DNA of 62,365 bases, the filler included, from Aduncisulcus paluster (taxonomy: Eukaryota): the NCBI GenBank assembly GCA_024181965.1. It is 8 parts of 8 records of this genome, joined end to end, with 100 filler letters (N's around TTAATTAATTAA, not from the genome) between each part and the next. Parts side by side here need not be neighbours in the genome. Positions count along the whole stretch, not along the records: positions 4,440 to 8,410 come from BQXS01011469.1; 7 more parts are not named here. One strand, given 5' to 3'. This document shows positions 2,450-46,137 of the stretch, piece by piece. The notes below the pieces were generated by a model that did not search any database, was not told the DNA's origin, and saw nothing but the letters and a program-made list of their open reading frames with translations. Each line of letters begins with the position of its first letter. Position 1 is the stretch's first letter. The translations under genes were made by a program, and so were the position numbers.

Positions 2450-4339
2450 AAATATTTTGACCTTTAATGATGTTGATTCTTCCTTTATTTTTATTGCTAT
2501 CTTTACCGTTATGCTGTTGTACACCTCGTCCTTCAATTTTCGAACCCTATTTTTAGATTGTGTATCTTCTCAGCGGTCTAAATACATGCATCTTCATCTA
2601 GATGTCGGTAGATATGCCAATGTTTATTGTTCAAGTCCTTGTGATTGTGTTGTTGCCAATCCCGATGTTGCTGATGGTAATATGTCTATTATGGTGACAA
2701 AGACAACCAAAACCCAACCAAAAAAATCAACCATAAGATTACACAAACCCTTCTCTTCCTCTTCCTTTTTCTTTGATTTGATGATCATTTTCATATTTCT
2801 AAATCTCTTACAACATTTGATTTTGCCAGTCTACTCTCTTCCTTCCAATGGTCAAGATAATGCTCTAAAACCAGACTTCTCAGCATATGAGTTTGAATAT
2901 GAATTTGAATATGAATACTCAGGTGTAGGTACAAATGATGTAAATATTTTGAAGAGAAATGATATCAATGCTCTCTCTTCTTCTTCTTCTTCTTCTTCTT
3001 CTTCTTCTTCTTCTTCACATTCCTCACATTCTTCTCACGGATCTATAAATAGCCATATTCAGGTTGGAGTGAAAGATCCAGCCTTGTCATATTTTGAGGT
3101 TGATATTCCCGATTCAAATCTTAGGGAAATGATTTGCACTGATGCCCTTGGATATACTAACACGGCATGTTCAGTGACTGAGTTTGATATGGCTTCCATT
3201 AGCTTTGCTGATGCGGCGAATAATCCTCTTGATTGTAATGCTTCTAATGGGTGTTTTGTATATAATCTTGAAGGAATGCAATATTTGATCAACGTTTATG
3301 GTATTTCTTTTGCTAAAAATAGTATCACGTCGGCCTTACCGGTGTCACATTTAAAACAACTTGTTCACCTTACCCTTGAAGGAAATAACAACGTTCCAAT
3401 ATTATATGACACAAATTCTTCAGATTTATTTAAATTACATCGCTTAGTTTTTTCGATCATACGAGGAAACCCCAAATTTTATGACATTTCTGTTTTTTAT
3501 AGGAATTTGCTCATGCAGAATCTTGATATTGCATATACTGTGATTTCTGTGTATAATCCTATTTGCAGGTCTGAAAATGATACCGATTATTGGACTTTTA
3601 TAAAGCAAATATTCCCTGTTCACAGAGAAGACCCCACCCGAAAAAATTATTACTTCCTCCCCAACAGCTGTCCTCTCAACTCTGATCCTGGAAATTCCCC
3701 ATATAACTGTGATACTTCAAATGCTTCATGCCCTTCAATAGTTCTGAATGAAGTGTACAACAGTGTGGATGGTGTGAACGCGAAACAATGTGCATTCATT
3801 GCGAAGGAAGGGAGCAGTGGTGAGTGTTACACTGTTCATGATGATTCAATTCGACAATATCTGAAGAATCAGTGTCTTTCCACGAGTGACCCTGAATCAA
3901 ATGGTGTCATCAGTGTTGCCACCATGAGGAGTGTTTTGTCATGTCCATTGGATACTAATAGTAATGAGTCATTGTCACTTCCAGACATAGCTTCTGCAGC
4001 TTCCTTAAGTTCTGTGAATTCTATCACGACTCTGCAAGGTCTTGAGTATGCCACTTCACTGACCTCTCTGACCATTGATGGGTATGACTTGAGTGGAGAT
4101 ATTAATTCCAATGCTGAGTATGATAAGTTGGTTGTTCAGATCTTGGCAAAGGCTGTGACGTCTGGAACCATTGATTCTGGTCTGAGGATATTATCTGCGA
4201 GTGGCTGTGGATTGAGTGATATCAGTGATGTGCTTGACTTGACCCCTCCAATTCCTACAACATATGTCCTTGATGGCATCACCGTTTCAACTCCACCATT
4301 TAAACTAACAAATTTGATTCTCTCCAACAATAACATCTC
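2427..4339 (+). CDS. LRR/Cys-rich surface protein, 3' truncated by contig end
   Basis: Signal-like segment MIIFIFLNLLQHLILPVYSLP, IPDSNLREMIC cap and LRRs (LQGLEYATSLTSLTIDG, LTNLILSNNNI). Cassettes are near-identical to those in the 4440-8410 gene. True start uncertain. Confidence 0.75.
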
Positions 4340-4439
4340 NNNNNNNNNNNNNNNNNNNNNNNNNNNNNNNNNNNNNNNNNNNNTTAATTAATTAANNNNN
4401 NNNNNNNNNNNNNNNNNNNNNNNNNNNNNNNNNNNNNNN
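4340..4439. other. Artificial contig linker N44-TTAATTAATTAA-N44
   Basis: 100 bp with a six-frame stop spacer. The identical structure recurs seven times. Confidence 0.97.
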
Positions 4440-7400
4440 CTGAGGATATTATCTGCGAGTGGATGTGGATTGAGTGCTGTTGGCGATATTCTTGATCTGA
4501 CTCCTATTGTTGATAATGCTTTAGTACTTGACACATACACACCCTTCAAACTCACTTCACTTGACCTCTCAAACAACTCCATCTCTGATGTATCTGTTCT
4601 CATCACATCTTCCATGTTCCCTGATGATACTGATGCTGTTCTCACAACTCTTGACATCAGTGGCAACTCCATCTGTGATATTGAAGGAATTGTGAGTCAA
4701 TTACAAATCAAATTCCCAACCCTATCAACCTTGACATATTCTGACCAAACATGCCATTGTTCTGCATCTGTGTCTTCTGCAGCTCACCAAGTGTGTCGTG
4801 AAGTGTATCCCGATCGCTGGGCTGTCGAGTGCTGGAATGGGCATTATCTCGACAAATCAACTAGAGAGTGTGTTGAAGCCACTGATTCCTCAGACATTAT
4901 CCGTTGTCAAGTGTGTGAAGGACATTCCAATATGATGCCTGTTCTTGAGGTTGGCGCTTCATCCATCACATGTGGGTGTCGATCTGCCTGGTATGGTGAC
5001 GATTGTGACCAGTTATATTCCGTCCATATCCCTGATAAGTTGTTCAGAGGTAAAGTGTGTGATGCTATAAGCAATAGTGATCCATTGTGTGATGTCACAG
5101 AGTTTGAAATGGCTGGTATAAGTGGAATTTTTAACTCATATAGTTCCCATATTACATCCTTTGAAGGTACTCAGTATTTGATAAACATTTCTAATTTCCG
5201 TGGAGACAATACGGATGTAACATCAGTTTATCCTATTTCATTCCTTGAACAACTTCCAATCTTATATTTTTATCAGTATTCAACTGCCTATAATGTCAAT
5301 ATTTATGATTTCAATTCCTTGTTTACATTGAACAGATTCTATGGATTGTATATTTATGGGAATGAACAAATCTATGATATATCTGTCTCATTTAGGAATG
5401 TTGGATTGTCTGAGATGTATATCGCGCATACAAATTTTTCTGCGTTCATACCTCTCTGTAGATCAGAAGATGATAACGATTATTGGACATTTATAACGAC
5501 TGTCTTTCCAATTCATGAGTCAACCAATAAGGATTTATTCTTTATTCCCAATAGTTGTTCTTTGAACAATGATGATGATTATGTATGTGACTCAGGAACA
5601 TATCCAACGCAATGCCCTTCAATAGTTCTGAATGAGGTGTACAACAGTGTTGCTGATCCTCCAGTCAAAGAATGTGCATTCATTGCCAAAAAGAGTGGAT
5701 CTGTTGATGATAATAATCTCACATGTTACACTGTTCATGATGACAATATTCGTGCTTATTTGTCCAACCCTAGCAATGGATGTCTGAGTAGTTCTGATAT
5801 TGAAGATAATGGTATGATTAGTGTTGCTACTCTGAGAAGTTCTTTAGCTTGTTCATCATTGAATCTGTCAGATATTGTATCAATTCAGACATTATCCTCA
5901 GTTAATTCCATCACGACTCTACAAGGTCTTGAGTATACCCAAGGTGGGACTGATTCGTCTGATAATCCTATTGGTTTGACATCATTGAACATTGATGGGT
6001 ATGATTTGAGTGGAGATACTAATCCCAATGTTGAGTACGATAAGTTGGTTGTTCAGATATTATCAAAAGGGGTGAAAGATTCAAATTATTATGGTTCCAT
6101 TAACTCTGGTCTTATATCCTTATCTGCAAGTGGATGTGGATTAAGTGTTGTCAATGATGTCCTTGATTTAACTCCGATTGCTTCTGGAGCCATGTATGAA
6201 GGTGGGCAATTTGACCCTACAACAAGAAATTTCAAACTGACATCCCTAGATCTCTCAAACAACTCCATCTCTGATGTATCTGTTCTCATCACATCTTCCA
6301 TGTTCCCTGGCGATACTGATGCTGTTCTTACAACTCTTGATATCAGTGATAATAATATCTGTGACATTGAAGGAATTGTGAGTCAATTGCAAACCGAATT
6401 CCCAACCCTATCAACCTTGACATATTCTGACCAAACATGCCATTGTTCTGCACCCGTGTCTTCTTCTGACCACCAAGTGTGCCGTGAAGTGTATCCCGAT
6501 CGTTGGGCTGTCGAGTGCTGGAATGGGTACTATCTTGACAAAGCCAGTGGAGAGTGTCTTGAGGTATGTGCGAGTGGGTCTGAGCTTGATACTTCCAGTG
6601 GAACCCCACCATATTCATGCACAACAGCTGCTTCAGATGTTGATGATTCCATTTGTCTCCAAGTATGCGAAAGACATACCAATATGATGGCTGTTCTTGA
6701 AGCTGGTGATTCATCCATTACATGTGGTTGTCGATCTGGATGGTATGGAGAAGACTGCTCGAGTGAGTGTCCAATTGTTGGAGGTGAAGTATGTTCTGGT
6801 CATGGAAGTTGTAACACCACCGATCATGTGTGTGAGTGTGACACTTGGTATGGTGATGCTTCATGTTCCACCCTTGTTCCGATATACTCCGCTGAATGTG
6901 ATCGTACATTCATCATTGATGATCATTTGGAGTGCAATGAGGTATATCCTGGTCGTTATGCAGCCGAGTGTGAGGATGGGTATTATTATGACCAAGGTGA
7001 GTATTCTTGTTTTTATGACACCAATACTGACTGTCCCAGTGATATGAATGATAATCAAATGTGTGTCAAAACAGCAGATGGTGATGTTATTACATCTGAT
7101 TGTCGATCTGCCTGGTATGGTGACGATTGTGACCAGTTGTATTCCGTTCATATCCCTGATACGTTGTTCAGAGGTAAAGTGTGTGATTATGCCGGATATG
7201 ATATTACAGTCGATCCACTATGTGACGTGTCAGAGTTTGAAATGGCTGGGATAAATGGGAAGTTTTATTCATCTGGTTCCCATATTAAGTCCTTTGAAGG
7301 AGCTCAGTATTTGATAAACATTTATTTTTTCTCTGGACGAGATACTGATGTAACATCAGTTTATCCTATTCCTCTCCTTGAACAACTATCAGTATTATAT

Positions 7401-8410
7401 TTTCATCAGGAATCAACTACCTATAATGGCAATATTTATGATCTCAATTCCTTGTTCACATTCAATAGATTGTATGGATTGGCTATTTATGGGAATGAAC
7501 AAATCTATGATATATCTGTCTCATTTAGGAATGTTGGATTGTCTATGATGTATATCGCGTATACACCTAATTCTGGATTCATACCTCTCTGTAGATCAGA
7601 AGATGATAACGATTATTGGACATTTATAACGACTGTCTTCCCAATTCATTCCTCAACCGTTAAGGATAATGCTTTTATTCCAAATAGTTGTGCTTTGAAC
7701 AATGTGGATGATTATGTATGTGACTCAGGAACATATCCAACGAAATGCCCTTCAATAGTTCTGAATGAGGTGTACAACAGTGTTGCTGATCCTCCAGTCA
7801 AAGAATGTGCTTTCATTGCCAAGTCTTCTGATGGTAAATGTTACACTGTTCACGATGATTATATTCGACAGTACTTGGTTGCTAATTGTTTATCTGGAGG
7901 AACTAATGATCTAGACTCTGGAATAATCAGTGTTGCCACGATGAGGAGTGTTTTGTCATGTCCATTGGATGCTAATAGTAATGAGTCATTGTCACTTCCA
8001 GACATAGCTTCTGCAGCTTCCTTAAGTTCTGTGAATTCCATCACGACTCTGCAAGGTCTTGAATATGCCACTTCATTGACCTCTCTGACCCTTGATGGGT
8101 ATGACTTGAGTGGAGATATCAATTCCAATGCTGAGTATGATAAGTTGGTTGTTCAGATCTTGGCAAAGGCTGTGACATATCCACCCATTGATTCTGGTCT
8201 GAGGATATTATCTGTGAGTGGATGTGGATTGAGTGCCATCAGTGATGTGCTTGACTTGACTCCGATTGCGTCTGGAGACTCAACCACAGACCAATTCAAA
8301 CTGACATCCCTAGATCTCTCAAACAACTCCATCTCTGATGTGTCTGTTCTCATCACATCTTCCATGTTCCCTGATGATACTGATGCTGTTCTCACAACTC
8401 TTGACATCAG
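4440..8410 (+). CDS. Internal fragment of a giant LRR + EGF-like repeat surface protein
   Basis: Open across the whole contig. Repeated LRR blocks (LTSLDLSNNSISDVSVL), Cys caps (NxICD...QTCHC, CREVYPDRWAVEC) and EGF motifs (CRSAWYGDDC, CSGHGSC...CECDTWYGDASC). Confidence 0.9.
4977..7825 (+). repeat. Intragenic duplicated ~0.7-kb cassette (about 4977-5690 and 7101-7825)
   Basis: Both copies start tgtcgatctgcctggtatggtgacgattgtgaccagtt and share long identical stretches. A second cassette occurs at about 4565-4850, 6255-6540 and 8318-8410. Confidence 0.9.
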
Positions 8411-8510
8411 NNNNNNNNNNNNNNNNNNNNNNNNNNNNNNNNNNNNNNNNNNNNTTAATTAATTAANNNNNNNNNNNNNNNNNNNNNNNNNNNNNNNNNN
8501 NNNNNNNNNN
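8411..8510. other. Artificial contig linker
   Basis: N44-TTAATTAATTAA-N44. Confidence 0.97.
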
Positions 8511-11148
8511 TTGGAGGACAGATCAAGATGTGTCAGAGTGGATGACAATGGATACACTTTCGTTCCATCATCATAACTGCCGACACACTGACCACTGCAC
8601 ATGGCAATGTTGTTCAGCAAAGAAGTGAATGATGACAGGTCGGAACCAATGGAATCATCACTCCCACTGATCTCCAAGGAACGCAACGAGCACAGACCAA
8701 CACAGTACGATTCAGACGTTCCATTCCAGCGTGAAGTATCAGACTCAAGATCCATCTTCAGAGCACCGACAGCATCCGTCAATGTGCTCAGAAGTGATAC
8801 ATCCATGTTTTCAAGCGAATCAAGCTCAAGCACATACAACGAGGATAAGGATGCAATGGGTGATAGATCAGAGATGAGAGTGTTCCCAGGCTCAAACGAA
8901 AGGATTTCAAGGTGCTCGGCATATTCAAGCCCTGAGAGGGAAGCCACGGTGGTAGGGATGGTGAGAGATGTGATGGTTGAGAGATCATCCACAGTCAGCG
9001 AGGAGAGAATGTTTTCAGCAGAAGAAGAAGAACATAACGATTGAACATCTACATCATCAACATACATGGATTCACAGATAGCTTCAACGAGGGCAACATC
9101 CATCCCAAGGGAAGACAGTAGTGTCACTCCACTCTCAATCTCACACAGGTCACCAGTCATGAGAGGTGACGATGAAGATGAAGAGCAGGTGCATGTATGT
9201 GTTTCAGAGTCACAAGTATCGGTTCCATCATAATTCCCACATTCATACCCATACTCATCAACAGGACATTCAGACAGACAATCGTCACCATACCACCCTT
9301 CAGAACACACAATGGAGATGTCATTTATAGACACAGAAGATACATCAGATCCCATTCCAATGCACTTTTGATTGGTACCCGAGAGACTCAGATCAGAGCA
9401 CATTGCATACAAGGATGCAGTTTCATCATCGATGAGCACACACGATAATGAGGATGAGCTCACATCAGTGTAACATGATGAACAGCATGTTGCAGAATAC
9501 TCACCTGGCCAGATCTCAGAGCAGACGATATTGGACGAAAGTGAGATGGAATCATCAGTACAAAGACAAACATTGTCATCGAAGATAGAATACCCATCAC
9601 TTGTCAACGATGATAATGGTGTTGTGAAGACAGACACGAAAGCATTCACTTCCTCTTCATCATCCATGCCACAGACATTGTTGACACGCAGATCAAGTGC
9701 GGTGAGAGTGGATGAGAGCAAGAACAATGGAGATGGGTCAGAGATGTTGTTATCACTGGCATCCAGATACTCTAACATCGGGAACAGGATCGTGAAAGAG
9801 GAAGAAGCGGAATCAACTTCATAGAGCCACAACAAATCATCCAACTTCATGCCACTCACATCAAGCTCCGTGAGATATGATCCAAAAATAGATGCAATAT
9901 CAGAGAGCAGGACATCTGTATTTGCAACACTCAAAGAGGTCAGAACACCAGACAGAGACGAGATCTGGGTCAAGTCATCCACGGCTGTATCGGATATGTT
10001 CAGAGCAGTCAGATGGTTAAACTCACTCAAGGAGTCAAGAACAGAGATATCACTCAAGGAAGTGTTTCCACTCAGATCGATGCATGAGATGTTCGTAAGA
10101 TATTCAAGTCCAGATAAGTCAGTGATATCAAGACTGGACAGATCAAGACACGATAATTCTTCTTCTGCACCGGTTGTGATCCCTTGCAAATTACTCTCCG
10201 TCAGATCACAAGTGGAGTTATAACCATCAATCGCGGAACACAGAGCAAAAAGAAGGTTGGCATCAGGAATTGTAATATATTGACACGAGTCACCATAAAA
10301 GGGAGAAAGAGTGCATTCACAAGTATGGGAAGGAATAAGACATGATCCATACTCAGAACCTCCACATTGAAGTTGGTTGGAGTAATGAAGTGGACATTCA
10401 TCCTCACATCTAGCACCATTCCATCCTTCAATACATACCGCAGCGCTACTAGAGCACTCCATATTCACATTATCCATGGATGAGTTCACACAAGAAGGGA
10501 ATGTGTCAGGAGGAGTGTAGTTATCCAATTCATCAAGATATGACACACATGAACTTGAGCCATCTTCATTATCTACTTTGTAACTATACAGATTACACTC
10601 CACACTCCATTGTTCGTGGGAAGTAGTGGTTGTAGTCACTCCACCAGAGCCATCATCTGCTTCAACAGTTTCTGTCCAGTCCCACACTTTACGACAGATC
10701 GTGTTGGAGGAAAGAGACGCGGCAGAAGAAGTATCTGAACAATGAATAACGGGATCACCAGCACCATCTCCAGCAGTCTCAGAGGATGAACAGAAACCAC
10801 AGGAAGAAGTGTCCTGTGAGGAAGATGTGATGGAAGGAGGATTAGAACTTGCATCAGCTCCAGAAAAGAAATCATACAATGCAGAACCATCATCATAATC
10901 AACTCCATCAAGACAGATGGAATTGTAACTGATATCAAGTGTGGCCAAGTCACCATTCAGATGATATAAAGGAGAGATGTCAACAAGGGAATTATCAGCA
11001 ACATTCAATTCAACAAGAGGAAGATGCACAATGGATAAGAGATCGGAATCTACAAGACCCAGGGAGGCAAGGCCTAAGGAGGAAATGGAAGAGAAACTCA
11101 CAAGAATGGATGGGTCAAACAATGAAGTCGTTTCTGCAACATCATCAT
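8511..11148 (-). CDS. Internal fragment of an LRR + EGF surface protein, paralogous to the 18470 gene
   Basis: ITDLSGLEYLTNISCIDLSGN, DASDNNISDPSPL, CIEGWNGARC. Shares the block VADNSLVDISPLY...CRKVWDWTET...WSVECNLYSY with the 2.9-kaa protein. Confidence 0.88.
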
Positions 11149-11248
11149 NNNNNNNNNNNNNNNNNNNNNNNNNNNNNNNNNNNNNNNNNNNNTTAATTAA
11201 TTAANNNNNNNNNNNNNNNNNNNNNNNNNNNNNNNNNNNNNNNNNNNN
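11149..11248. other. Artificial contig linker
   Basis: N44-TTAATTAATTAA-N44. Confidence 0.97.
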
Positions 11249-13881: not shown

Positions 13882-13981
13882 NNNNNNNNNNNNNNNNNNN
13901 NNNNNNNNNNNNNNNNNNNNNNNNNTTAATTAATTAANNNNNNNNNNNNNNNNNNNNNNNNNNNNNNNNNNNNNNNNNNNN
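13882..13981. other. Artificial contig linker
   Basis: N44-TTAATTAATTAA-N44. Confidence 0.97.
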
Positions 13982-17940: not shown

Positions 17941-18469
17941 GAATTTAAGTTAATAATTGTTTCTAAATTAGTCTGAAAACCAAACCTTGTTCATTTTCAG
18001 CCTAATTTAGAAACAAATGTTACACTGTATTGATGGCATAAGATGAAGGCCAAAAACAAAGCCGATAAGGTCGTATACTCGATGGTTTTCCTCGGGCTGG
18101 GGGATGAAGAGGGCCGATTATCAATGATAATTTATCATTATGATATTATGTCATCAAAAACGCCAAAAATCTCGCAAATTAAACGCAAATTACTGAAACA
18201 AATTATCGTAAAATCCTTTGATCAAAAATTTAGCGAGAACCTGCTTCACTCTGTCACGGATTAGATAGATCTAGTCTAATTCACATCGTGTTGGCCTTTT
18301 AATAAAATATTCCAGAATCCTCTTATTGCTTTTTTTCGTTTATTTATTGTTATTGAATTCGTGATTGTTTCGATTCTATATCATAGTTAAAAAGTAGATT
18401 TCTGTTCTTGACCGACATTAGAGTTTGACAGAATCATTAGGTCATTCTTTTTTTATTAAATTGACATTA

Positions 18470-21400
18470 ATGATATCTCTCAACCAGTTCACATTTCTTT
18501 TTTCGATTCTTTCCCTATTCATATTGTTTCATTCAATTGCTGCATGTTCAGAGGGTTATTATGGAGAATCGTGTGAATATATTTCTATTACAGATAGTTG
18601 TTTTCAAGCAAATATATGTATTTCTATTTATGAATATTCAGAATGTGATATTCTTGAAACTGACGCTAATTCCCTTACTTCTCTTTCTATGGCTGAAGGA
18701 TCATGTTCTATCTCTTCTGTTGATGGAATTGAACATTTTTCTAATTTAAATGAAATTGTTGTTTCCAATTTCACCGATTCGCTCGAATTTTTGTCAACTT
18801 TGCCAAATCTAGATTACCTCGTTTTTTCCAGTATTGACTATAGTCAAGATTTTTCATTTTTATCATCCCTTACGATTTCATCAGTCCAGTTCGATGATTA
18901 TTCCGTTAATTCAGCCTCCCTATCGGCTATTTTTGTCTATCTTCCATCTACTATCACATATATTGGATTAAATTTCACATTTGGGGTGGAAAATCTTAGC
19001 TTTCTAAGCGAATTATCAAGTCCTGGGACTGTTCAAACTTTCCGAATCTTGAGTGCCTATCAAGTCGTAGATTATTCCCCCATCAATATATTGACCAATC
19101 TTTCTGAGCTATTTATATCCGGAGCCTCTAATTATGTTGGTTTTGACACTCATCTTGTTGATATATTCGCCAATATATCCTCTTCTCTTACCTCTTTGTC
19201 TCTTATTGCAATTCCAACAACCTTAGACCTAAGTACCTTCACCAGTTGTTATTTGGAGTCATTTGTTGGGATATCCGTTAGTTTTCTTAATGGAGATGCC
19301 TCTCCCTTGGCGAATTGCACATCTCTCACCAAGTTGTCCATCGAATCGGACGATCTCGATTTGTCCACACTCAATGTTGATAATCTCTACAGTCTCGAGA
19401 CTCTATCCATTCGTGCTTCCGATGACAATTCATCAGGTTTTACTGCCGATTATTTATATCTACTTCCCAACTTCCAAGAGCTTTATCTCGACACTGTTGA
19501 AATAGCCTCCTCTTTCTATCAATGGTTCCGTATTTCCCCCGATATTTTTCCAGCCCTCGTATCCATTGACATATCCGGAACAGATATTGAGAGTCTTGAC
19601 GGGTTTACAATGGTTACTTCAGATTCTTTTCCTCTTCTCGAATCAGTCAATATCGACCATGCTAATATTTCAAACCCCCAACCATTAATCGATGCCTATC
19701 TTCCATCCTTAAGGAGAGTCGGTTTGCAAAGTAATTATGTATGCAACGATTATAGCTCTCCAGAAGAGTTTTCTGCACTTTTCGACCAGTATCAAGATGG
19801 CACTGGGGATTTTCAGGCGGTGGTGCTTAATCAACGGTGTAATTGTGGAAATTATACGTGGGATGACGATGGAGCCTTCTGCATGGATACGTATTTCTAT
19901 TCTTATGATGTCGGATGTGATCTTGGCGGTATTAAATCATTCTCAAGTCTTGAGGATGCACAAAGCCACGCACAAACGTTCACGTGCGTTGAGTCCATCG
20001 GTGGAAACACATGTCTCACTAGTGATGCATATCCTATTGTGATAGATGGCATTGGGAATAGACCAAGTGCCGGAGGGTGCAGCGAATATCATGAGTGTAT
20101 TTCGATTGCAGGCGGAGAACCTTATTGTGCTTGTATTGAAGGATGGTACGGTGCTGCATGTGACAAGGAATGTCCCGTCATATTGGATGAGAACGATTAT
20201 GAAGTCATGTGTTCAGATGACTCGGCTTGTCTCCAACTCATGCACACGTGTCTTTGTCCTGACTTTACTACTGGAGACGCTTGCCAATATGTGGACTTCG
20301 TTGATGAAAACCTCCCTATATATCTGTGCGATGAAACTCTTCAGTCTCAGTCCAAATATATGGGGTTTGTTGACAATGAACCATTCGAATGCACGGAGGA
20401 TGGAAATATTCTCATTACAGACATGGCTAAGCTCTTGTTTCTTAATTTAGAGAATTCCAATGTCACTGATCTCACTGGTCTCTTATTTGCAACAAGTTTG
20501 ACCTCTTTGATGATGGATTCAATCAACTTAACTGAAGATGCCGCATCCTCGATCGATTTGTCTGAATTTACGACAATGACAGAACTTGAATCGTTAACCA
20601 TCTCCTCTTCTTCAAATTTCTCAATATCGACCGAGTCTATCCTCAACCTTCCAGCTTCTTTGGTTTCTCTGAGATTTACAAACGATCAAGTGGGAGAAGA
20701 TGTTGATTTCTCTCCTTTAGAAAATCTTGTTCTTCTCGACCTTGCCGATAATTCAGATTTCAATCTCACACTGGTTAATTTGCTTCCTGACAGTTTAGAA
20801 TCCCTTGATGTCGCCAACACAAGCTTTTCTCTTCCTATTCCGGGTATTTTACCTCAATACATCAGATCGCTTAACTTGATGGGCACACCTGTTGAATTTC
20901 CATCATCTTTTGATAATATGACACAAAATGATGGATCTCAACTTCCAAATCTTATTTCCTTGTCCATTTCTGAAACCTCAATATCATCCTTCACGGGTCT
21001 TCCATCCACTATTTCAACACTCACAGCTGCCAGTTGTCCAGGCTTATCTTTACTATCTCTAACAAATACGTCTGCTCTGAGTGCTGTCGTTCAGCTTGAT
21101 TTGTCAAATAATAACATATCTGACCCATCTCCATTATACTTTATGGAAAACCTGGAGAATATTAATCTTTCTCAAAATTCTATTTGTGGATCAGATGTAA
21201 GTTCTCTCCTTCTTCTCGATAAATTCATCAGTGACGATATTGAAATTGAAGTTGAGGATAATTTATGCCCTCAATGCGATGGATCAACTTGTTTAGCGTG
21301 TTTAACACTTGAAAATACTTCCATTTCTGAAAACAAGGTATGTGTGGAGACTTATTTCGGTTCTGGATCGTACCAATCTGTTTGTGCAAGTGATTCTTTC

Positions 21401-24400
21401 GTGGAATACACTTCTTTGAATACATTTACATGCACCCAACCTCTCTGTGATGGTGGAAACTCATATTGTTGTGCTGCGTGTCCATACGGTCAAGAATGTA
21501 GATTTTCCTCTGTTTCCGGTGAGAGTTCATGTGTAGATATCATTCCTGACGACGACTTACACTCATCAATCGCCAATCTTCTTGATGACTCTGATCAGGA
21601 CATTACGAATGGTTTATTCAGCGTTGCCTCTTTGAAGTCACTTGTTTCTTCAACCGATGAACAAGATAATGTCGCACCGATTCTTGATTGCACTGGTTCA
21701 AATGTCAGTGATTTGACAGGAATTGAACATCTTCAAGGGATATCAGAGGTATATCTGGATGAATGTCCATTGAATGCCTCCTCAAATCTCTCAAATCTCT
21801 CAGTTTTATTTGGTCTTGAGAAACTTTCGATGAATTCTATCGAAGCAAACACTGAACTTCCCGACCTTTCTGATCTCGAGCTTCTCACATGGTTTGACAT
21901 TCATAATTCCTCATTCTCCATTCCGGGAGATGCATATGTTCTTCCCTCTAGCTTGTTGTATATCAATTTGAATGGTTCCTCAATTGATCAGAGTGGATTT
22001 GACTGGAATATTGCTGAAAGATTACAATATCTTTTGACTCTAAATATTGGTTCGACTGTTGTGACCGATATCTCTAAGCTATCGCTTTTACAAAGACAAT
22101 CTATTCGTGTTTTGGATGTCTCGTATCTTGATTTGGGTACAGATTCCATTTCCGTTATTGAATCGATGAACCATCTTATATCTATCACTCTTGATGGCTG
22201 TACAAATATTACCACAATCCCCGATCTCTCTGAGAGTTATGACAGTTTGCTGAATCTTAGTATAGCCTTCAACCCTTCTCTCACAACGTTATATCCTTTG
22301 TTCCAATATGGACTCTCTAATCTGACCTCAATCGATGTGTCTAGCTCTTTCATTAGTGATATTTCACCATTATTCGATATGCCTGCACTCTTGAGTATTG
22401 CCGCAAACAATACCGCAGTATGCGTTGGCTCATCCTCTCCTGAGGATTATTACCTGTATTTTGTGAATGGATCAGAGACCGATTTTGTTCTATATATGGA
22501 TCCATTATCATGTAATTGTGAAGATTCTTTGTCCTCTATTCCTATTTCTGATTTTAAGGTCTGCAGTGAGACTAAACCTGGCTCAAATACCTGGTATCCT
22601 GTCTGCTCCAGCCATAGCATTGCATCATACACATCTGTGGATACCTTCGAGTGTCTAGCTCCACTCAACACAGATGGTGAAACATATGGATGTTCTGGAG
22701 GTTGTGAGTATGGATATGAATGTAGATATGATGATGAAACACAAGCTTCCTCTTCATGTTATCATGTGATTGCTGATACTAACTTGAGAGCACACGTGAC
22801 AAATCTGATCTCTGATAGCCATCGCGTTAGTTCACAAGGAGAATATCTTGTTAATGCCGCATCTCTGAAACATTACTCTGGAACAGAGATATATTTCTCT
22901 GGATATGAGTTGGAGAGTGATGAATTGGTAAATGATCTCACTGGTCTCGAATACATGTCTTCCTTGACAAGCATAAATATGTCATCCCATTCCTTCTCTT
23001 CTTGTGACCCTATTAAATATCTCCCATCTGTTTCAAGTTTGATTCTCGGTCACAATGCCAATCTCTCTGATATTTCCTGTGTTTGTCCTTACCAATCGTT
23101 GGTTACATTGGATATTTCTGCATCTCCTGTGCTTGAATTGCCCTCTTCGTGTTCGTTTTCTCCCTTTTCTTCTGTCACTTCTCTTGGCATTTCAGATACT
23201 CTTATTGCAGACCTCAGTGTGTTGCTTGACGATAACGATGAAAATAACACTCTGACGAGACTATCTCTCGCTTCAACAGATCTCTATACCTATAGTGGAG
23301 AATTTGAAGCATATATTGACATTTCTCAGCTTTTATCTTTCTCTTCTATCGAGGATTTGGATATTAGTGGCCTTGAATTGTCCGAATCTTCACTTCAAAA
23401 TTTACTTCATTTGTCTCTGAGATATCTTACTATTGCTGACAATTTACTTTACGACATTTCTCCATTGTATCAGCTTAACCAATCACTAATCTATCTTGAT
23501 ATCTCTGAAAATAATATTTGTAATGCTAATTCTGAACAATATTCCTCGTATTTGCCCTCTACTTCCATTATTCTGAACAATCAAAATGAGACAGATTGCG
23601 ATAATTGTACAGTGTCAGTGACTCTAGATGATGGAACAGTCATTCATGCCAGTGAATCCTCAGATTCTGGGTCAATTTCTGCCAATACTGTGTGTCGTGC
23701 AGTATGGGATTGGACTGAAACGGATGAAATGACGATGGAAAGTACTTTACACCAGTATTGGAACGTTGAGTGTAACTTATACAGTTATCTTGCCGAAGAT
23801 GGAACATGCATATCCTATATCAACTCTGTCACCTCTGCACCAGCCTCTTCCTTCCCCCTCTGCGTTGAGGAGCGTATGGACCATATAACTAAAATGTGCG
23901 ATAATTCTGCGGGTGACTCTACAACCTGTATTGATGGGTGGTATGGTTCTGAGTGTATAGACGAATGTCCAACAGACTCAGATGGGTTTGTGTGCGGAAA
24001 TAATGGAACGTGTCAGTATGATAGTCGTGCTTGTGAATGTGACGATTCTCATCAGGGTTCTTATTGTCAGTATGTTTTATTTGATGATTCTGATCTTGAA
24101 GCGTTTATATGTGATAACATTGAGGGATTAACCTGCAGTGTCGATGGACACATGTTGTTCGAAGACCTTGAATCGGTCACAGAACTTGATTTATCGGGCC
24201 AAACTGATATCACATCAATTGGTGGAATTGAGTATGCCGTCAATCTAATATCCTTATCGTTGAGTTCAATCTCTCTGTCAGATTCTACGAATGTTACTGA
24301 ACTCTGTGAATTAACCTCCCTTGAGAACTTAGATCTTAGCAATTCAAATATATCGTCAATCGGCTGTTCTATCGATTCGATATCCACTCTCGATATTAGT

Positions 24401-27214
24401 TACTCTGAATTGACAAGTTTAAGTGCATTCTCACAATGTAACCTTGATTCATTGAAGATGGATGGAGTATCTCTTGATGATATAACGATTGTTGAGTCCT
24501 TTACAGAACTGGTAACCCTTGAGATGAGTTATGTCTCGATATTCGACGATGATACTGATATTAATGATCCTCAAGTTCATTCTCTTTCTTCAACTGATCT
24601 TTCTCTGATTGAATGGAATGTTTTCGAAAGCCTTTCATATCTTGTTGCCTCCAACAATAATATCGACTCCTTATTATGGTTGGTTTACCCATATGTCACA
24701 GAATTCCATTCTCTGGATCTCTCCTATAATTCTATTAGAGATCCGACTCCTTTGTATTTGTTAGGAACCTCTCTATGCATTGCTGATCTTAGTTATAACT
24801 ATATCTGTGGATCTGACACATCTGAGTCGTATACTTATTTCTCCTCTCATTTCCTTGATGTTGAGTGCCTTGAGACAGAGTATATTTTTAGCGATCAGTT
24901 TGAATGTCCATGCTCCTCTTCTTCTTTCTCGTTTGAGTCCAATCTTGTTTGTTCCGTTGGGTGGATTGATGAATCAGAATCCAGTGTATATCTCGCCTCA
25001 TGTTCTGCATATTCATACAAAGTCATGGACAGTTCCACCGATGTTGGGTTTGTATGTGTAGAATTTGGCTCTGATGACGACGAGTCAGGGGATCCTGAGA
25101 TTGTTGAGGAATGTCTCTTGCAATGCTCCACCCAAGGTCACTTTGAATGTGTTGATATCATGTCATACTCTACATTGTCGACTTCTGTGTCTGTCGAGTG
25201 TGTATGTGACGAGGGATGGTATGGCGAAGAGTGTTCCCGTGAATGTCCAGTTGTGATCAGTGATGTTGATAGTCTTGAGTATCTGTGTGGTGCTATTGAT
25301 GACTCTGTGACTCAAGGTTCATGCAATCTCTCCTCCCATTCGTGCGAGTGTACCCTTGGATGGGGTAGTGATAATTGTTCTGAAGACCAGTGTGCTATGA
25401 CATCTGAAGAAGGAGTCTGCAATAATCATGGAACCTGTTACCAACTCTCCTCGTCATCTTCCTATTGTAGCTGTGAACAAGGGTACGGTGGGGACTCGTG
25501 TGTTGATAAGACCTGTGACGATTCGAGTGGAGAGTTTTGTTCAGGCGTTGGTATCTGTGAGAAGGATTCATATGGAGAATACCATTGCTCTGCTTGTGAC
25601 TCTGCTTATACTCTTAATTACGATGCTTCTGACTGCCTTCCTATGTGTTCCCCTGTTTCATACTGCGGGGACTATGGTACATGTGTTGGATCAAATGAGT
25701 GTGTGTGTGACGATGGATACAGCAACAATCCAGAGGATGCGTCAGCTCCCTGCAGCATTTATACGTGTGGAGACGATGCGTCTAACCCCTGTTCTGGCAG
25801 TGACCATGGTATCTGTACTCGAATAAGTTTTACCGAGCACGAATGTTCCTGTAACCTTGGATGGAATGGTGATTCTTGTGAACTTGAAGGCTGTCCCATG
25901 ATAGATGATGGCTCAGGTTCCTTTATCTCGTCCTGTGGTGACCATGGCTCGTGTGTCATGAGTGAACTCGATGGAACAAGCGCCTGTGAATGTGAGATTG
26001 GCTGGGAACTTGGATTGGAATCTCTCATGTGCGATTCTATGAAAGGAACATGTGTTGATGATGCCTCATGCAGTGACCAAGGAATATGTTCGTTAGATTC
26101 TGATCTTGAGGAATGGAATTGTGAGTGTTTCTCAGGTTGGGGTGGAGAGTCATGCTCAATCGATGAGTGTTCTGCCACCTGTGATACCCTCCATTCAACT
26201 GGATGTGAAGACATTCTTGGCGATGGATCTCTTTCCTGTGCTTGTAAACAAGGGTGGATTGGCGAGATGTGTTCAATTAGTGATTGTGATTGCCACGGCA
26301 AAGGTGAATGTGTAGATGATAGTTCTAATCCTGGAGCTTCAATCTGCGAATGCATTGGTGGTTGGTCTGGTAACACATGTGATGCTATTCAAAATGATTA
26401 TGATTCAATCTGTTTTGATACCTTCTGTGTTCCTTTCACAACTTGGACCAGTCTATTTCCACTCGTTCCTTCCAGAAGTTCTTCAAACATTATCAGGGGC
26501 CATGGAATCTCAATTTTCTCTTCTTCCACCCATCCAATCGATTATTCTTACATGTCTTTCCCCTTTGTTGAAGCTGTACTTGATCCTCTTCTTACAGAGT
26601 TTCTCGAGGAAGGAAGTCAGGTTATAGCCGATGGATCTGTTTTTTCACTCGAATCTGATGAATGTCAGATCATCTTTTGCTCAGATTCTATTACTAGCAT
26701 CTCTGAAGATACCCAATCAATCATTTCTCTCGATCAGGTAATGTGCAAAACATTCTCTCTCTCTGAATGCTCATTTGAATCCAATTCTGTCGAGCTTAAG
26801 AGTTTTACTCACTCAGCAATGAGTGTTATTCATGGGGTTAACAAGCGAAACTGTCAAGATACTGCTTGTGATGTGACTTTCCCCGTGTTCTCTTCCATTG
26901 ATCACTCCTCTGTGCGTCTTTTCCCCCAATACGCTCTCCCTGAATGTAATAGTTCTTCTCATCTTCTTGTTATCAGAATATTTGGAGATTCTCTTGCCCA
27001 ATGCATTAGAATTGAAGATGGCGAAGATGACAGTGTTTATTACGAGTGGTCAAGGATGGAATCTACGGGATTATTTGACATGGGAGATAATTATTCTTCA
27101 GAAATCACGTCTTCAAGTTCATCCAGAGTTGGAAACATCGCTCAGCAAGAGTTTTACTTGAAATCGTATGAAATTGCTCTTTTATGCAGAGGATTGCGTG
27201 CTGTTCTCGAATGA
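18470..27214 (+). CDS. Giant (~2914 aa) secreted LRR + EGF-repeat protein
   Basis: Signal peptide MISLNQFTFLFSILSLFILFHSIAA. About five LRR blocks (DLTGLEY/DLTGIEH...DLSNNNISDPSPL) separated by Cys-rich/EGF units, then a tandem EGF array (CNNHGTC...CSCEQGYGGDSC). Intronless, no clear C-terminal TM. Confidence 0.92.
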   Translation: MISLNQFTFLFSILSLFILFHSIAACSEGYYGESCEYISITDSCFQANICISIYEYSECDILETDANSLTSLSMAEGSCSISSVDGIEHFSNLNEIVVSNFTDSLEFLSTLPNLDYLVFSSIDYSQDFSFLSSLTISSVQFDDYSVNSASLSAIFVYLPSTITYIGLNFTFGVENLSFLSELSSPGTVQTFRILSAYQVVDYSPINILTNLSELFISGASNYVGFDTHLVDIFANISSSLTSLSLIAIPTTLDLSTFTSCYLESFVGISVSFLNGDASPLANCTSLTKLSIESDDLDLSTLNVDNLYSLETLSIRASDDNSSGFTADYLYLLPNFQELYLDTVEIASSFYQWFRISPDIFPALVSIDISGTDIESLDGFTMVTSDSFPLLESVNIDHANISNPQPLIDAYLPSLRRVGLQSNYVCNDYSSPEEFSALFDQYQDGTGDFQAVVLNQRCNCGNYTWDDDGAFCMDTYFYSYDVGCDLGGIKSFSSLEDAQSHAQTFTCVESIGGNTCLTSDAYPIVIDGIGNRPSAGGCSEYHECISIAGGEPYCACIEGWYGAACDKECPVILDENDYEVMCSDDSACLQLMHTCLCPDFTTGDACQYVDFVDENLPIYLCDETLQSQSKYMGFVDNEPFECTEDGNILITDMAKLLFLNLENSNVTDLTGLLFATSLTSLMMDSINLTEDAASSIDLSEFTTMTELESLTISSSSNFSISTESILNLPASLVSLRFTNDQVGEDVDFSPLENLVLLDLADNSDFNLTLVNLLPDSLESLDVANTSFSLPIPGILPQYIRSLNLMGTPVEFPSSFDNMTQNDGSQLPNLISLSISETSISSFTGLPSTISTLTAASCPGLSLLSLTNTSALSAVVQLDLSNNNISDPSPLYFMENLENINLSQNSICGSDVSSLLLLDKFISDDIEIEVEDNLCPQCDGSTCLACLTLENTSISENKVCVETYFGSGSYQSVCASDSFVEYTSLNTFTCTQPLCDGGNSYCCAACPYGQECRFSSVSGESSCVDIIPDDDLHSSIANLLDDSDQDITNGLFSVASLKSLVSSTDEQDNVAPILDCTGSNVSDLTGIEHLQGISEVYLDECPLNASSNLSNLSVLFGLEKLSMNSIEANTELPDLSDLELLTWFDIHNSSFSIPGDAYVLPSSLLYINLNGSSIDQSGFDWNIAERLQYLLTLNIGSTVVTDISKLSLLQRQSIRVLDVSYLDLGTDSISVIESMNHLISITLDGCTNITTIPDLSESYDSLLNLSIAFNPSLTTLYPLFQYGLSNLTSIDVSSSFISDISPLFDMPALLSIAANNTAVCVGSSSPEDYYLYFVNGSETDFVLYMDPLSCNCEDSLSSIPISDFKVCSETKPGSNTWYPVCSSHSIASYTSVDTFECLAPLNTDGETYGCSGGCEYGYECRYDDETQASSSCYHVIADTNLRAHVTNLISDSHRVSSQGEYLVNAASLKHYSGTEIYFSGYELESDELVNDLTGLEYMSSLTSINMSSHSFSSCDPIKYLPSVSSLILGHNANLSDISCVCPYQSLVTLDISASPVLELPSSCSFSPFSSVTSLGISDTLIADLSVLLDDNDENNTLTRLSLASTDLYTYSGEFEAYIDISQLLSFSSIEDLDISGLELSESSLQNLLHLSLRYLTIADNLLYDISPLYQLNQSLIYLDISENNICNANSEQYSSYLPSTSIILNNQNETDCDNCTVSVTLDDGTVIHASESSDSGSISANTVCRAVWDWTETDEMTMESTLHQYWNVECNLYSYLAEDGTCISYINSVTSAPASSFPLCVEERMDHITKMCDNSAGDSTTCIDGWYGSECIDECPTDSDGFVCGNNGTCQYDSRACECDDSHQGSYCQYVLFDDSDLEAFICDNIEGLTCSVDGHMLFEDLESVTELDLSGQTDITSIGGIEYAVNLISLSLSSISLSDSTNVTELCELTSLENLDLSNSNISSIGCSIDSISTLDISYSELTSLSAFSQCNLDSLKMDGVSLDDITIVESFTELVTLEMSYVSIFDDDTDINDPQVHSLSSTDLSLIEWNVFESLSYLVASNNNIDSLLWLVYPYVTEFHSLDLSYNSIRDPTPLYLLGTSLCIADLSYNYICGSDTSESYTYFSSHFLDVECLETEYIFSDQFECPCSSSSFSFESNLVCSVGWIDESESSVYLASCSAYSYKVMDSSTDVGFVCVEFGSDDDESGDPEIVEECLLQCSTQGHFECVDIMSYSTLSTSVSVECVCDEGWYGEECSRECPVVISDVDSLEYLCGAIDDSVTQGSCNLSSHSCECTLGWGSDNCSEDQCAMTSEEGVCNNHGTCYQLSSSSSYCSCEQGYGGDSCVDKTCDDSSGEFCSGVGICEKDSYGEYHCSACDSAYTLNYDASDCLPMCSPVSYCGDYGTCVGSNECVCDDGYSNNPEDASAPCSIYTCGDDASNPCSGSDHGICTRISFTEHECSCNLGWNGDSCELEGCPMIDDGSGSFISSCGDHGSCVMSELDGTSACECEIGWELGLESLMCDSMKGTCVDDASCSDQGICSLDSDLEEWNCECFSGWGGESCSIDECSATCDTLHSTGCEDILGDGSLSCACKQGWIGEMCSISDCDCHGKGECVDDSSNPGASICECIGGWSGNTCDAIQNDYDSICFDTFCVPFTTWTSLFPLVPSRSSSNIIRGHGISIFSSSTHPIDYSYMSFPFVEAVLDPLLTEFLEEGSQVIADGSVFSLESDECQIIFCSDSITSISEDTQSIISLDQVMCKTFSLSECSFESNSVELKSFTHSAMSVIHGVNKRNCQDTACDVTFPVFSSIDHSSVRLFPQYALPECNSSSHLLVIRIFGDSLAQCIRIEDGEDDSVYYEWSRMESTGLFDMGDNYSSEITSSSSSRVGNIAQQEFYLKSYEIALLCRGLRAVLE

Positions 27215-30315: not shown

Positions 30316-30415
30316 NNNNNNNNNNNNNNNNNNNNNNNNNNNNNNNNNNNNNNNNNNNNTTAATTAATTAANNNNNNNNNNNNNNNNNNNNNNNNNNNNN
30401 NNNNNNNNNNNNNNN
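30316..30415. other. Artificial contig linker
   Basis: N44-TTAATTAATTAA-N44. Confidence 0.97.
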
Positions 30416-32980: not shown

Positions 32981-33080
32981 NNNNNNNNNNNNNNNNNNNN
33001 NNNNNNNNNNNNNNNNNNNNNNNNTTAATTAATTAANNNNNNNNNNNNNNNNNNNNNNNNNNNNNNNNNNNNNNNNNNNN
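32981..33080. other. Artificial contig linker
   Basis: N44-TTAATTAATTAA-N44. Confidence 0.97.
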
Positions 33081-41826: not shown

Positions 41827-42094
41827 CTTCTTGGACTCAAAAATGCTGATTGAATTTTTTTTTTCTCGCGAAACAAAACTATAATTATTTCCAAGAACGA
41901 TCCACTTATTCAAGTAAATTGTCATTGAAAATATAATGTAACAGGTTAACTTTGTTGATAATATTCTTATTACTACTATTACAATAATGTCCACTTCTTG
42001 GTGCTCATTGATAAAATCAAAAACAGTTATAGGATATTTTAATACCAATTAATCATAATAGCATCAAAAAATATAAACTTGTTTGATTTTATCA

Positions 42095-45000: not shown

Positions 45001-46037
45001 GACTACCATTGCTTTGCCCTGCGATATGCGATATGACAGACCTTCAGGATGGAGTGAGGGGGCTAAACCACAAGAGACTCGAAAGAAATCGCCTCGACTT
45101 GCTCTCGAAGAGATCTTTAGACTCTCTCCCCCCATGGAACATAATAAGTCTGAAGAGGAAGAAGAGGAAAAAGTTGGAATCACTCCAGATGATCAAAGAA
45201 AGACTGTATTCCAGCATAGCTTACCTCAGCCAGTTGCCACAACCACTCAAAGATCTGTGAGGAGTGATGGAGACAAGATAATACTGAAAATACCAACATG
45301 TGATGCCTCTGGTAAACTTGTTGGATTGACTCGTTCTGTGGATTTAGGCTCCTACTCCTCCTCCTCAAAAACACAAAAGATATCAGAAGATCAATCACCA
45401 CCTGTAGAAAACACTTCTCCTCATCTCTCAGATTTTGTTAGTCCCATATCTAAACCCTCAAAGTCTACGGCCTCTCTATTAGAAGGATATAACGAGAAGT
45501 CTTCCACACATAATGGCACATCTCATCGCCATCATGGAGCTTCCAAGGAACCAATATCGACATCTGTACCATCATCACACCACTCTCACCATCGTCTGAA
45601 GATACCTCACACACGCACTCCGAAGCTCTCTGATCTCTCAATCGGGAGTGAGCATGCAGAGCTTGAGTCACTCGAACAGTCCCTTGCCATGAGTATATTA
45701 TCCCTTGCTGATAAAGACCAGAGATTCTTTGATAAGGAGGCTGGCCGTTTCACTGGGCGTCTGGAAGTTCACCAGAAAGATAGACGGGAGAGAGAGCGAA
45801 GACGCAAACAACGACATATCGACAAGATTAATCGACGGGCGGAAATGAGGCGAGCTCAACGAATGAAAGCCGCCGATAGCAAGATATTACAACCGACCAC
45901 AGTCGCCTCTCATCCCCCTCCGTCCTCCTCAATGTTCTCTGCCAAGTCTGCTGGTCTTGGTCCATCCCCTTCCAACCTCCACTCTGCCCTCCCTCCTGGC
46001 TCTGGCTCTGTCACGGTCACAAAGAAACACACCCGAT
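42095..46037 (+). CDS. 6TM K+ channel, Slo/BK (KCa)-like, with long low-complexity inserts; 3' truncated
   Basis: S1-S6 helices; pore FVDSFYFGTVTVITIGYGDIVP; RCK-like IVVVG...FLSEFFH...VLFISP and VSSLKEIELMLVAAGCEVEG...ILQNL. Confidence 0.88.
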
Positions 46038-46137
46038 NNNNNNNNNNNNNNNNNNNNNNNNNNNNNNNNNNNNNNNNNNNNTTAATTAATTAANNNNNNN
46101 NNNNNNNNNNNNNNNNNNNNNNNNNNNNNNNNNNNNN
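46038..46137. other. Artificial contig linker
   Basis: N44-TTAATTAATTAA-N44. Confidence 0.97.

Follow-up and report, generated by a model that had tools for sequence, protein, structure and literature searches.

The flagellate Aduncisulcus paluster is free-living, anaerobic, and bacterivorous – a unicellular metamonad belonging to the Fornicata. Here, we analyse a 62,365-nucleotide stretch of its genome (the window) and, within it, a contig (BQXS01011469.1, positions 4440-8410) filled by a single open reading frame (ORF) that carries two complete copies, B (5016-5852) and C (7140-7961), of a leucine-rich repeat (LRR) cassette; a further copy of the same type, A, lies on a separate contig. Almost all differences between B and C fall at about 20 codons, where non-synonymous change outpaces synonymous change several-fold; purifying selection acts on the remainder of the cassette and on the domains beside it. 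We think it probable that the ORF belongs to a long gene of tandem extracellular-type modules, in which a fixed internalin-like scaffold displays a diversified binding face, and that it is part of a germline repertoire shaped by diversifying selection and by reassortment of segments. Diversified LRR receptor repertoires are a known kind of system, and the A. paluster family with its internalin-like scaffold is a new, undescribed example.

B and C stem from a recent intragenic duplication or conversion, their synonymous divergence (dS) being about 0.2. They align without insertions or deletions over model residues 25-181, so the codon alignment is unambiguous there, and sliding windows place the recent tract at approximately alignment columns 46-255 (proportion of synonymous differences, pS, 0-0.25), with pS of 0.6-0.8 beyond column 256. 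The tract, taken as model residues 27-235, has 203 aligned codons, a dS of 0.18, a non-synonymous divergence (dN) of 0.137, and 13% overall divergence. A reading of this DNA made earlier from the sequence alone (the sequence-only reading) had noted long identical stretches shared by two intragenic copies, and these are evident: the longest identical runs are 61, 62, and 67 nt, compared with a random longest run of 34 nt on average (95th percentile 50). The tract holds 150 identical codons, 30 with one base changed, 18 with two, and 5 with three. When the 81 differences were placed randomly in 10,000 trials, codons with at least two changes averaged 9.7 and reached a maximum of 19, against the 23 observed, and a count of three-change codons as high as that observed occurred in 0.02% of trials; the substitutions are thus not evenly spread. 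Differences between coding sequences are normally dominated by third codon positions; those between B and C are even over the three positions (30, 23, and 28). At positions 59-65, for example, replaced and untouched codons alternate – ATT [TCT>TAT] [AAT>TTT] TTC [CGT>TCT] GGA [GAC>CGA] [AAT>GAT] – with the framework codons TTC and GGA unchanged between replaced ones.

The sequence-only reading also proposed that amino-acid changes cluster at the x positions of LxxLxLxxN-type strands within an invariant framework. The peptide pairs quoted for this (ISGIFNSYSSH/INGKFYSSGSH, INISNFRGDNT/INIYFFSGRDT, LPILYFYQYST/LSVLYFHQEST, FYGLYIYGN/LYGLAIYGN, and LSEMYIAHTNF/LSMMYIAYTPN) and both invariant framework peptides are all present, in one frame of the contig. 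The LRR part (residues 27-147) has 30 amino-acid differences: the 25 textbook x positions take 13 of them, and the 96 remaining positions take 17 (odds ratio 5.0, p 8.7e-4). The proposed clustering is confirmed; only a subset of x positions is hypervariable.

Hypervariable positions were taken from five other close paralogs (P0047, P0006, P0012, P0011, and P0009) as those with at least three residue types and, being defined without B and C, form a site class independent of the tested pair. There are 22 of them (38, 40, 43, 60, 62, 64, 82, 84, 86, 94, 109, 110, 112, 133, 138, 140, 141, 168, 170, 171, 174, and 175), and the positions that vary between B and C vary among the other close paralogs too. 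Rates were derived from NG86 counts and from a two-partition codon model for sequence pairs (F3x4), in which the partitions share time and kappa. Between B and C the 22 codons have a proportion of non-synonymous differences of 0.60 and a dN of 1.21, relative to a whole-cassette dS of 0.21, such that their non-synonymous rate is about 5.7 times the cassette synonymous rate (32/53 non-synonymous sites changed at hypervariable codons versus 18/98 synonymous sites in the cassette; Fisher p 2.5e-7). The dN/dS ratio (omega) is 0.58 at the 38 positions with two residue types and 0.14 at the 97 invariant positions, and non-synonymous to synonymous differences number 32:4 at hypervariable positions and 17:14 elsewhere (p 0.002). 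The partitioned codon model rejects an omega of 1 for the hypervariable class (likelihood-ratio test 17.2, p 3.3e-5), although its free estimate, approximately 31, lacks precision owing to near saturation at these codons. Two control comparisons gave low ratios: the second LRR domain of A and C (omega 0.31, dS 0.165) and an upstream LRR/EGF segment with copies at 4545 and 6231 (omega 0.16, dS 0.35). The predicted excess of dN over dS holds at the 22 paralog-defined positions and is not significant for the textbook x class taken alone.

If the LRR were merely structural or adhesive, its exposed residues could be free of constraint and drift neutrally, and variable positions could then arise with neither positive selection nor a specific recognition repertoire; x positions are the least conserved in any LRR, and the x class defined a priori has an omega of about 2 that is not significant. 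We nonetheless consider relaxed constraint alone quite improbable, given the 5.7-fold non-synonymous excess at independently defined positions where an omega of 1 is rejected, the occurrence of 5 codons replaced at every base and another 18 at two bases within a stretch of 13% divergence overall, and a residue composition skewed to Tyr, Ser, and Asn rather than random. Concerted evolution in place of recent duplication is also a rather unlikely explanation, but less so. Frequent conversion would homogenise the framework DNA of many cassettes while old differences at exposed codons are kept, so that the low dS would not date the copies and omega would be overestimated; selection would still maintain the diversity, and variable codons would not have to be substituted faster than neutrally. 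The way that segments are reassorted among A, B, C, and further paralogs points to active recombination or conversion, and LRR pairs within the close group of paralogs are about equidistant, at 70-80% identity, except for the near-identical P0012 and P0004. Conversion tracts are contiguous, yet replaced and identical codons alternate singly (59-65, 81-88, and 109-112), and such alternation would need equally fine-grained selection. Diversification on a fixed scaffold accounts better than any of the rival explanations, including those introduced below, for the way that replaced codons alternate one by one with identical ones.

Pfam calls LRRs on the 4440-8410 ORF in the second conserved domain only and none in the variable cassette, and the LRR identity of the cassette was established by profile and fold instead. 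The cassette alignment has 32 rows – A, B, and C from the window and 29 paralog stretches, drawn from 34 near-full-length among 90 domain matches and leaving out two P0001 rows that the window copies supersede, the second P0005 cassette, P0036, and P0033 – and Cys 15, 25, 148, 181, 191, 200, 220, and 237 are invariant in all 32. An AlphaFold2 model built on this alignment (pTM 0.78; pLDDT 81 on average, with residues 1-120 in blocks that exceed 85) predicts helices at 8-17 and 29-34 followed by five short parallel strands (36-40, 57-62, 82-85, 110-113, and 133-135), which are 21-28 residues apart and have pLDDT above 85. Foldseek comparison with the PDB places Listeria InlB (E 2.8e-8), InlH, InlC, and InlA first, and the top 40 among the matches listed are all LRR proteins. 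The cassette profile matches InlA with an E value of 3.9e-23 in an alignment spanning the InlA cap (from chain residue 15) and repeats. It sets the LxxLxLxxN register as I58-x-x-F61-x-G63-x-x-T66, L80...Y88, F108...N116, and L131...T139; the register of the first repeat is ambiguous due to a one-residue insertion relative to InlA. The five repeats, which begin at model residues 35, 58, 80, 108, and 131, are in tandem and of the 20-30-residue size of LRRs. No Ig-like inter-repeat domain is found, every InlA or InlB profile match stopping at profile position 149 or earlier, and the approximately 130 residues after the LRRs form a Cys-rich alpha/beta segment with six invariant cysteines. By model and profile the cassette is an internalin-like cap and LRR domain, and it is not an internalin proper because this Cys-rich segment replaces the Ig-like domain.

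The strands of an LRR solenoid form its concave sheet, with alternate residues facing the core and the solvent. Hypervariable positions make up 11 of the 25 textbook x positions and 6 of the 96 other LRR positions (p 2e-5), and 9 of the 22 hypervariable positions fall in strands assigned by DSSP, compared with 13 of the other 135 positions (p 6e-4). Variable residues of the repeats occupy the five predicted strands or the positions that directly follow them, and within strands they alternate with conserved hydrophobic residues (F39, F61, L83/F85, L111/I113, and M134). Such alternation in an LRR solenoid would put these residues on the concave sheet rather than at buried or convex positions, in support of the location suggested by the sequence-only reading, with the remainder falling outside the strand zone. 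At hypervariable positions in the close group, Tyr makes up 20.5%, compared with 8.1% elsewhere, and Ser and Asn come next; among the eight close cassettes, seven are distinct in their 22-residue signature, with one position separating P0012 from P0004.

Single-codon changes with often all bases replaced have a templated or targeted appearance, and variable codons could in principle be written by programmed diversification, whether adenine mutagenesis like that of diversity-generating retroelements, hypermutation, or somatic copying of cassettes as in agnathan variable lymphocyte receptors (VLRs). We regard this as highly improbable. All twelve classes of base change occur between B and C, with no adenine-specific pattern and with purine-ending variable codons in both copies; contig depths suit fixed genomic copies; and the 4-kb contig, too short to exclude one, has no reverse transcriptase or template repeat. 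Adenine mutagenesis of AAY codons in particular is rejected, since every base of the variable codons is subject to change and some of these codons end in a purine.

Database searches identified 63 named relatives, all from A. paluster (43 of 44 matches, the 44th being P0001, which is the translation of the ORF itself, and 20 of 20 shorter matches). A profile search of 1.84 billion representatives returned 13,526 matches at E<=1e-3 and 220 at E<=1e-30. Ten of these were looked up: five are from A. paluster, and the other five match only the cap and LRRs (profile positions 3-147), in many stretches, three being encoded on contigs of 4-6 Mb. One of the five, P0045, has the same IPDxNLR cap and LRR unit at 24% identity, and the presence of this unit in such relatives marks the scaffold as a widespread type. 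Among named records the Cys-capped cassette with its knot is seen only in A. paluster. Searching 191 collected proteins with a cassette model (hmmsearch) gave 127 domain matches, including 46 full-length cassettes in 40 proteins, and the family is probably a repertoire encoded in the germline, with tens of proteins at the least and over a hundred cassettes. Our literature searches turned up no description of this A. paluster family, and none of a metamonad with LRR diversification at specific positions, and the proposal of an uncharacterised repertoire in a unicellular protist is consistent with this large, species-restricted family.

The paralogs also vary in architecture. Five of them (P0007, P0013, P0018, P0023, and P0030) have the N-cap (model 1-30) fused directly to the C-cap (approximately 121-157) with no LRRs, such that the repeat block acts as an insertable or deletable unit. 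At the C-terminus of two complete paralogs, P0029 and P0030, a hydrophobic helix is followed by a short tail, and P0041-P0044 carry a kinase domain (PF00069); a crude hydropathy scan of P0041 revealed no membrane helix. The P0030 tail after the membrane helix starts KCFRGK, reminiscent of the CRGKA tail of Giardia variant surface proteins, perhaps by coincidence. Membrane helices or kinase domains in these paralogs suggest, from their sequences, a putative assignment as receptors or adhesins.

The cassettes and knots are mosaic. C tracks B to approximately column 256 and then A, with A-C pS of 0.04-0.2 past column 300, and positions 7919-8218 in module C are 95% identical to 3902-4201 in copy A. 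The LRR part of A is 38-41% identical to the close group, although in its knot segments it shares 91-100% identity with P0006, P0009, and P0012, and B, C, and P0011 have another knot type, P0011 changing type inside the knot. The mosaicism is either recombination or conversion at conserved stretches or a product of the short-read assembler. The genome announcement for A. paluster, which makes no mention of this family, describes an assembly from Illumina 150-bp paired-end reads only, generated with MaSuRCA, of 29.4 Mb in 25,863 contigs with an N50 of 4.6 kb and BUSCO of 40%.

Short reads of near-identical paralogs can be threaded into composites, in which case B and C would not be real haplotypes. 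This type of assembly invites such an artefact, as do the more than 1000 related contigs that cover the B stretch: one DNA run has 1088 contigs of at least 80% likeness on 1301 bases around B (250 at >=99%, 341 at 95-99%, 296 at 90-95%, and 201 at <90%), and the best DNA run contains only 0.74 of sampled B words. The run with 1088 contigs is possibly the sample behind the assembly, and is therefore not independent support. However, identical runs within the cassette do not exceed 67 nt, below read length, and contigs of two runs match B exactly at 5092-5239 (covering the first two variable patches), 5663-5933, and 5775-6200. Even a chimera would be built of real local patches and would retain position-specific variability. 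The listed depths of eight DNA-run contigs (six at 1255-1414, one at 1795, and one, about double, at 2509) fit fixed germline copies without proving them, as assembled contigs drop rare variants; summed contig depth falls over some variable patches, a measure of neither copy number nor ranking from which nothing is concluded. We therefore consider an artefact improbable, to a marginally greater degree than relaxed constraint. Run X2, whose contigs equal B at 5092-5239 and 5775-6200, was only guessed to be RNA and is not counted as expression, and none of the RNA runs listed contains the cassette B stretch.

Several points weigh against the reading of B and C as diversified recognition cassettes. 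First, 7 of the 22 hypervariable sites (94, 140, 141, and those in the loop at 168-175) are outside the strand zone, and this loop, which follows the C-cap helix, is modelled at low confidence; the proposed solvent exposure of variable sites would follow from strand alternation and the InlA register. Second, the 25 textbook x positions alone have an omega of 2.2 by NG86 (p 0.06) and 1.8 by the codon model (p 0.14), neither significant, because several x positions are conserved (including G37, F39, S41, Q87, Y114, G115, and A137). Third, the codon evidence comes from one pair of copies, B and C, among three cassettes available as DNA, and ongoing conversion of the framework would make dS understate copy age and inflate omega. 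Fourth, the assembly is Illumina-only with an N50 of 4.6 kb, and long-range mosaics could be chimeric. Lastly, the ORF is cut at both ends, so that a signal peptide, membrane anchor, or kinase would be putative for it, as are its ligand, localisation, expression, and role.

The cassette shares with Listeria InlA, InlB, InlH, and InlC a helical N-cap running directly into short LRRs (the 22-residue bacterial type), and internalins are the best match by both fold (Foldseek E 2.8e-8 and up) and profile. In the InlA-E-cadherin and InlB-Met complexes the ligand is bound on the concave face. The cassette differs in being only about 20% identical, and in having repeats of 22-28 residues, conserved cysteines in both caps, a Cys-rich knot in place of the Ig-like domain, and a eukaryotic context with many cassettes per polypeptide and EGF-like repeats. 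In place of bacterial cell-wall anchoring (LPXTG or GW), some paralogs end in a membrane helix; moreover, internalins themselves are not a hypervariable paralog repertoire. Agnathan VLRs have an invariant LRR framework with a hypervariable concave sheet and adjacent loop, and Tyr, Ser, and Asn abound where they vary. The cassette resembles them in its invariant LRR framework, its variable strand sites and loop, and its Tyr/Ser/Asn-rich composition, but LRR class and architecture differ; the animal-type cap families LRRNT and LRRCT in Pfam gave no match at E<=0.1, the cassette caps being internalin-like with added cysteines. VLR diversity is assembled somatically from flanking cassettes, whereas A. 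paluster contig depths are compatible with fixed germline copies.

In plants, NLR, LRR-RLP, and LRR-RLK receptors form large germline families, with positive selection on the exposed x residues of LxxLxLxxN and with recombination and conversion between paralogs. Work on such plant receptors includes PMC8226289 and PMC3782705. Some A. paluster paralogs have a kinase domain, as do plant LRR receptor kinases, but the LRRs are internalin-like rather than of the plant-specific 24-residue class, there is no NB-ARC, cassettes are in tandem in one protein, and the organism is a unicellular phagotroph. The nearest precedents among the papers listed are the LRR-ROCO family of the brown alga Ectocarpus and the BspA-like families of diplomonads. 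Ectocarpus LRR-ROCO proteins are described as a diversified LRR family with diversifying selection and repeat-unit shuffling, and are proposed to be immune receptors (PMC3341825, PMC11378527); like the A. paluster family, they are diversified LRR proteins of a eukaryote that is neither plant nor animal. The Ectocarpus proteins are cytoplasmic ROCO GTPases diversified through exon shuffling in a multicellular alga, whereas A. paluster has intronless extracellular-type ORFs with Cys-rich/EGF modules. The A. paluster family also resembles BspA-like proteins (of Trichomonas, Entamoeba, and Trepomonas) and Giardia variant surface proteins in being a large surface-protein family, as found in metamonads. 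However, Pfam LRR_5 (the TpLRR class of BspA-like proteins) has no match in three window proteins or six paralogs, and Pfam VSP (CXXC-rich) has none in window proteins at E<=0.1. BspA-like proteins have been counted in diplomonads (PMC11437800), and the sections of that account available to us do not report a position-specific diversifying pattern.

The ORF is organised as tandem modules of about 560-700 residues, of extracellular type, each running from an LRR cassette that starts with IPDxxFR through a Cys-rich knot and a second LRR domain to an EGF-like Cys-rich stretch of variable length (Table 1). A conserved segment of the second LRR domain starting FKLTSLDLSNNSIS (4545) recurs at 6231 and 8295. 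No Pfam EGF match was obtained on the ORF, such matches falling on paralog P0029. The Cys-rich region before C has approximately 120 extra residues relative to that before B (6738-7097, with added CxCxxxWYGxxC-type units), so the number of EGF-like units differs between modules of one gene.

Table 1. Coordinates of the modules, cassettes, hypervariable codons, and sequence gaps in the window.
Feature	Position	Strand	Remarks
Single ORF, 1323 codons, cut at both ends (= P0001)	4440-8410	+	Fills 3971-bp contig
End of preceding module's second LRR domain (FKLTSLDLSNNSIS...)	4545-4748	+	Pfam LRR_4, LRR_6
EGF-like Cys-rich stretch 5' of cassette B	4749-5015	+	
Cassette B helical N-cap, IPDxxFR motif, Cys15 and Cys25	5016-5087	+	Model helices 8-17 and 29-34, pLDDT above 90; aligns to InlA cap
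Cassette B, five LRRs, 17/22 hypervariable codons	5088-5456	+	
Cassette B LRR hypervariable codon starts, first nine	5127, 5133, 5142, 5193, 5199, 5205, 5259, 5265, 5271	+	
Cassette B LRR hypervariable codon starts, last eight	5295, 5340, 5343, 5349, 5412, 5427, 5433, 5436	+	
Cassette B Cys-bearing C-cap (CRSEDDxDYWTFITTVFPIH), then hypervariable loop	5457-5558	+	Loop pLDDT low
Cassette B loop hypervariable codon starts	5517, 5523, 5526, 5535, 5538	+	
Module B Cys-rich knot, invariant Cys181, 191, 200, 220, 237	5559-5852	+	Segments reassort between paralogs
Module B second, conserved LRR domain	5853-6434	+	Pfam
EGF-like Cys-rich region 5' of cassette C	6435-7139	+	
Cassette C N-cap	7140-7220	+	
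Cassette C, five LRRs	7221-7589	+	Framework DNA near-identical to B; hypervariable codons replaced, often 2-3 bases each
Cassette C C-cap and hypervariable loop	7590-7691	+	
Module C Cys-rich knot	7692-7961	+	Nearest relative changes from B to A at approximately alignment column 256-296
Module C second LRR domain	7962-8410	+	Truncated by contig end
Copy A, same cassette type, separate contig (1-4339)	3093-3944	+	LRR part 38-41% identical to B and C
N44-TTAATTAATTAA-N44 linkers	4340-4439, 8411-8510, 11149-11248, 13882-13981, 30316-30415, 32981-33080, 46038-46137		Not biological
20-N runs	28267, 35690, 37088, 53214		Ordinary scaffold gaps

Most of the 18 N runs in the window are parts of six-frame stop linkers with the pattern N44-TTAATTAATTAA-N44. 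Separate contigs have thus been strung together to make up the window, and neighbourhood across a linker is uninformative. A search of the window with cassette B (tblastn, E<=1e-3) found A, B, C, and one distant copy of 25% identity on the minus strand (9770-10306). The distant copy sits in an 870-residue Ser/Asp-rich LRR/EGF-like ORF (8511-11122, minus strand) that occupies its own contig and has LRR_4/LRR_EndoS matches. The same search gave no match in a 2929-codon ORF at 18425-27214 (plus strand), a giant LRR/EGF surface-type gene with matches to LRR_EndoS, LRR_4, and Teneurin-type EGF. In the ORF of copy A, a candidate start codon at 2682 precedes a hydrophobic N-terminal stretch (2766-2834). 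Between this stretch and cassette A come approximately 15 serines followed by HSSHSSH, along with an EFEYEFEYEY repeat (2950-3030); the tract looks like a low-complexity stalk or linker. Ordinary genes on the other contigs encode an ABC transporter (33081-35689, plus strand), an ESF1 RRM protein (40270-42045, minus strand), and an Ion_trans_2 channel-domain protein (42083-46037, plus strand), and there is a large ORF with a weak thrombospondin-repeat match (55622-59383, minus strand).

We propose that the product of the 4440-8410 ORF would function in surface recognition or adhesion, binding variable external ligands for a bacterivorous flagellate. The cassette would act as a fixed scaffold with a Tyr-rich diversified binding surface on its concave face, new specificities would arise through point substitution under positive diversifying selection, and recombination or gene conversion at conserved framework stretches would shuffle module segments. 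Candidate ligands are bacterial prey, other microbes, or partners in cell-cell recognition, and some paralogs may signal via their kinase. A bolder proposal, which we think unlikely, is that this is an independently evolved LRR variable recognition system: a germline repertoire of a hundred or more internalin-like cassettes, several per surface protein, each with a Tyr-rich concave paratope on which positive selection would keep producing new specificities, and with cassettes and knots reshuffled by recombination, would discriminate among prey, pathogens, or partners. In an alternative form, it could correspond, in a free-living cell, to the systems of variant surface proteins in its parasitic diplomonad relatives, with variegated expression.

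Immune receptors in plants, jawless vertebrates, and a brown alga have as their hallmark the position-specific diversification of an LRR binding face. If the reading proposed here is true, A. paluster would have such diversification on a bacterial-type, internalin-like LRR scaffold, with several cassettes per protein and probably over a hundred copies, and repertoire-style recognition would be independent of multicellularity or parasitism. The cassette family may help to explain the poor assembly of the A. paluster genome, and it represents a naturally diversified, disulfide-stabilised scaffold with defined variable positions. It would also provide a concrete candidate for how a phagotroph discriminates among bacteria.

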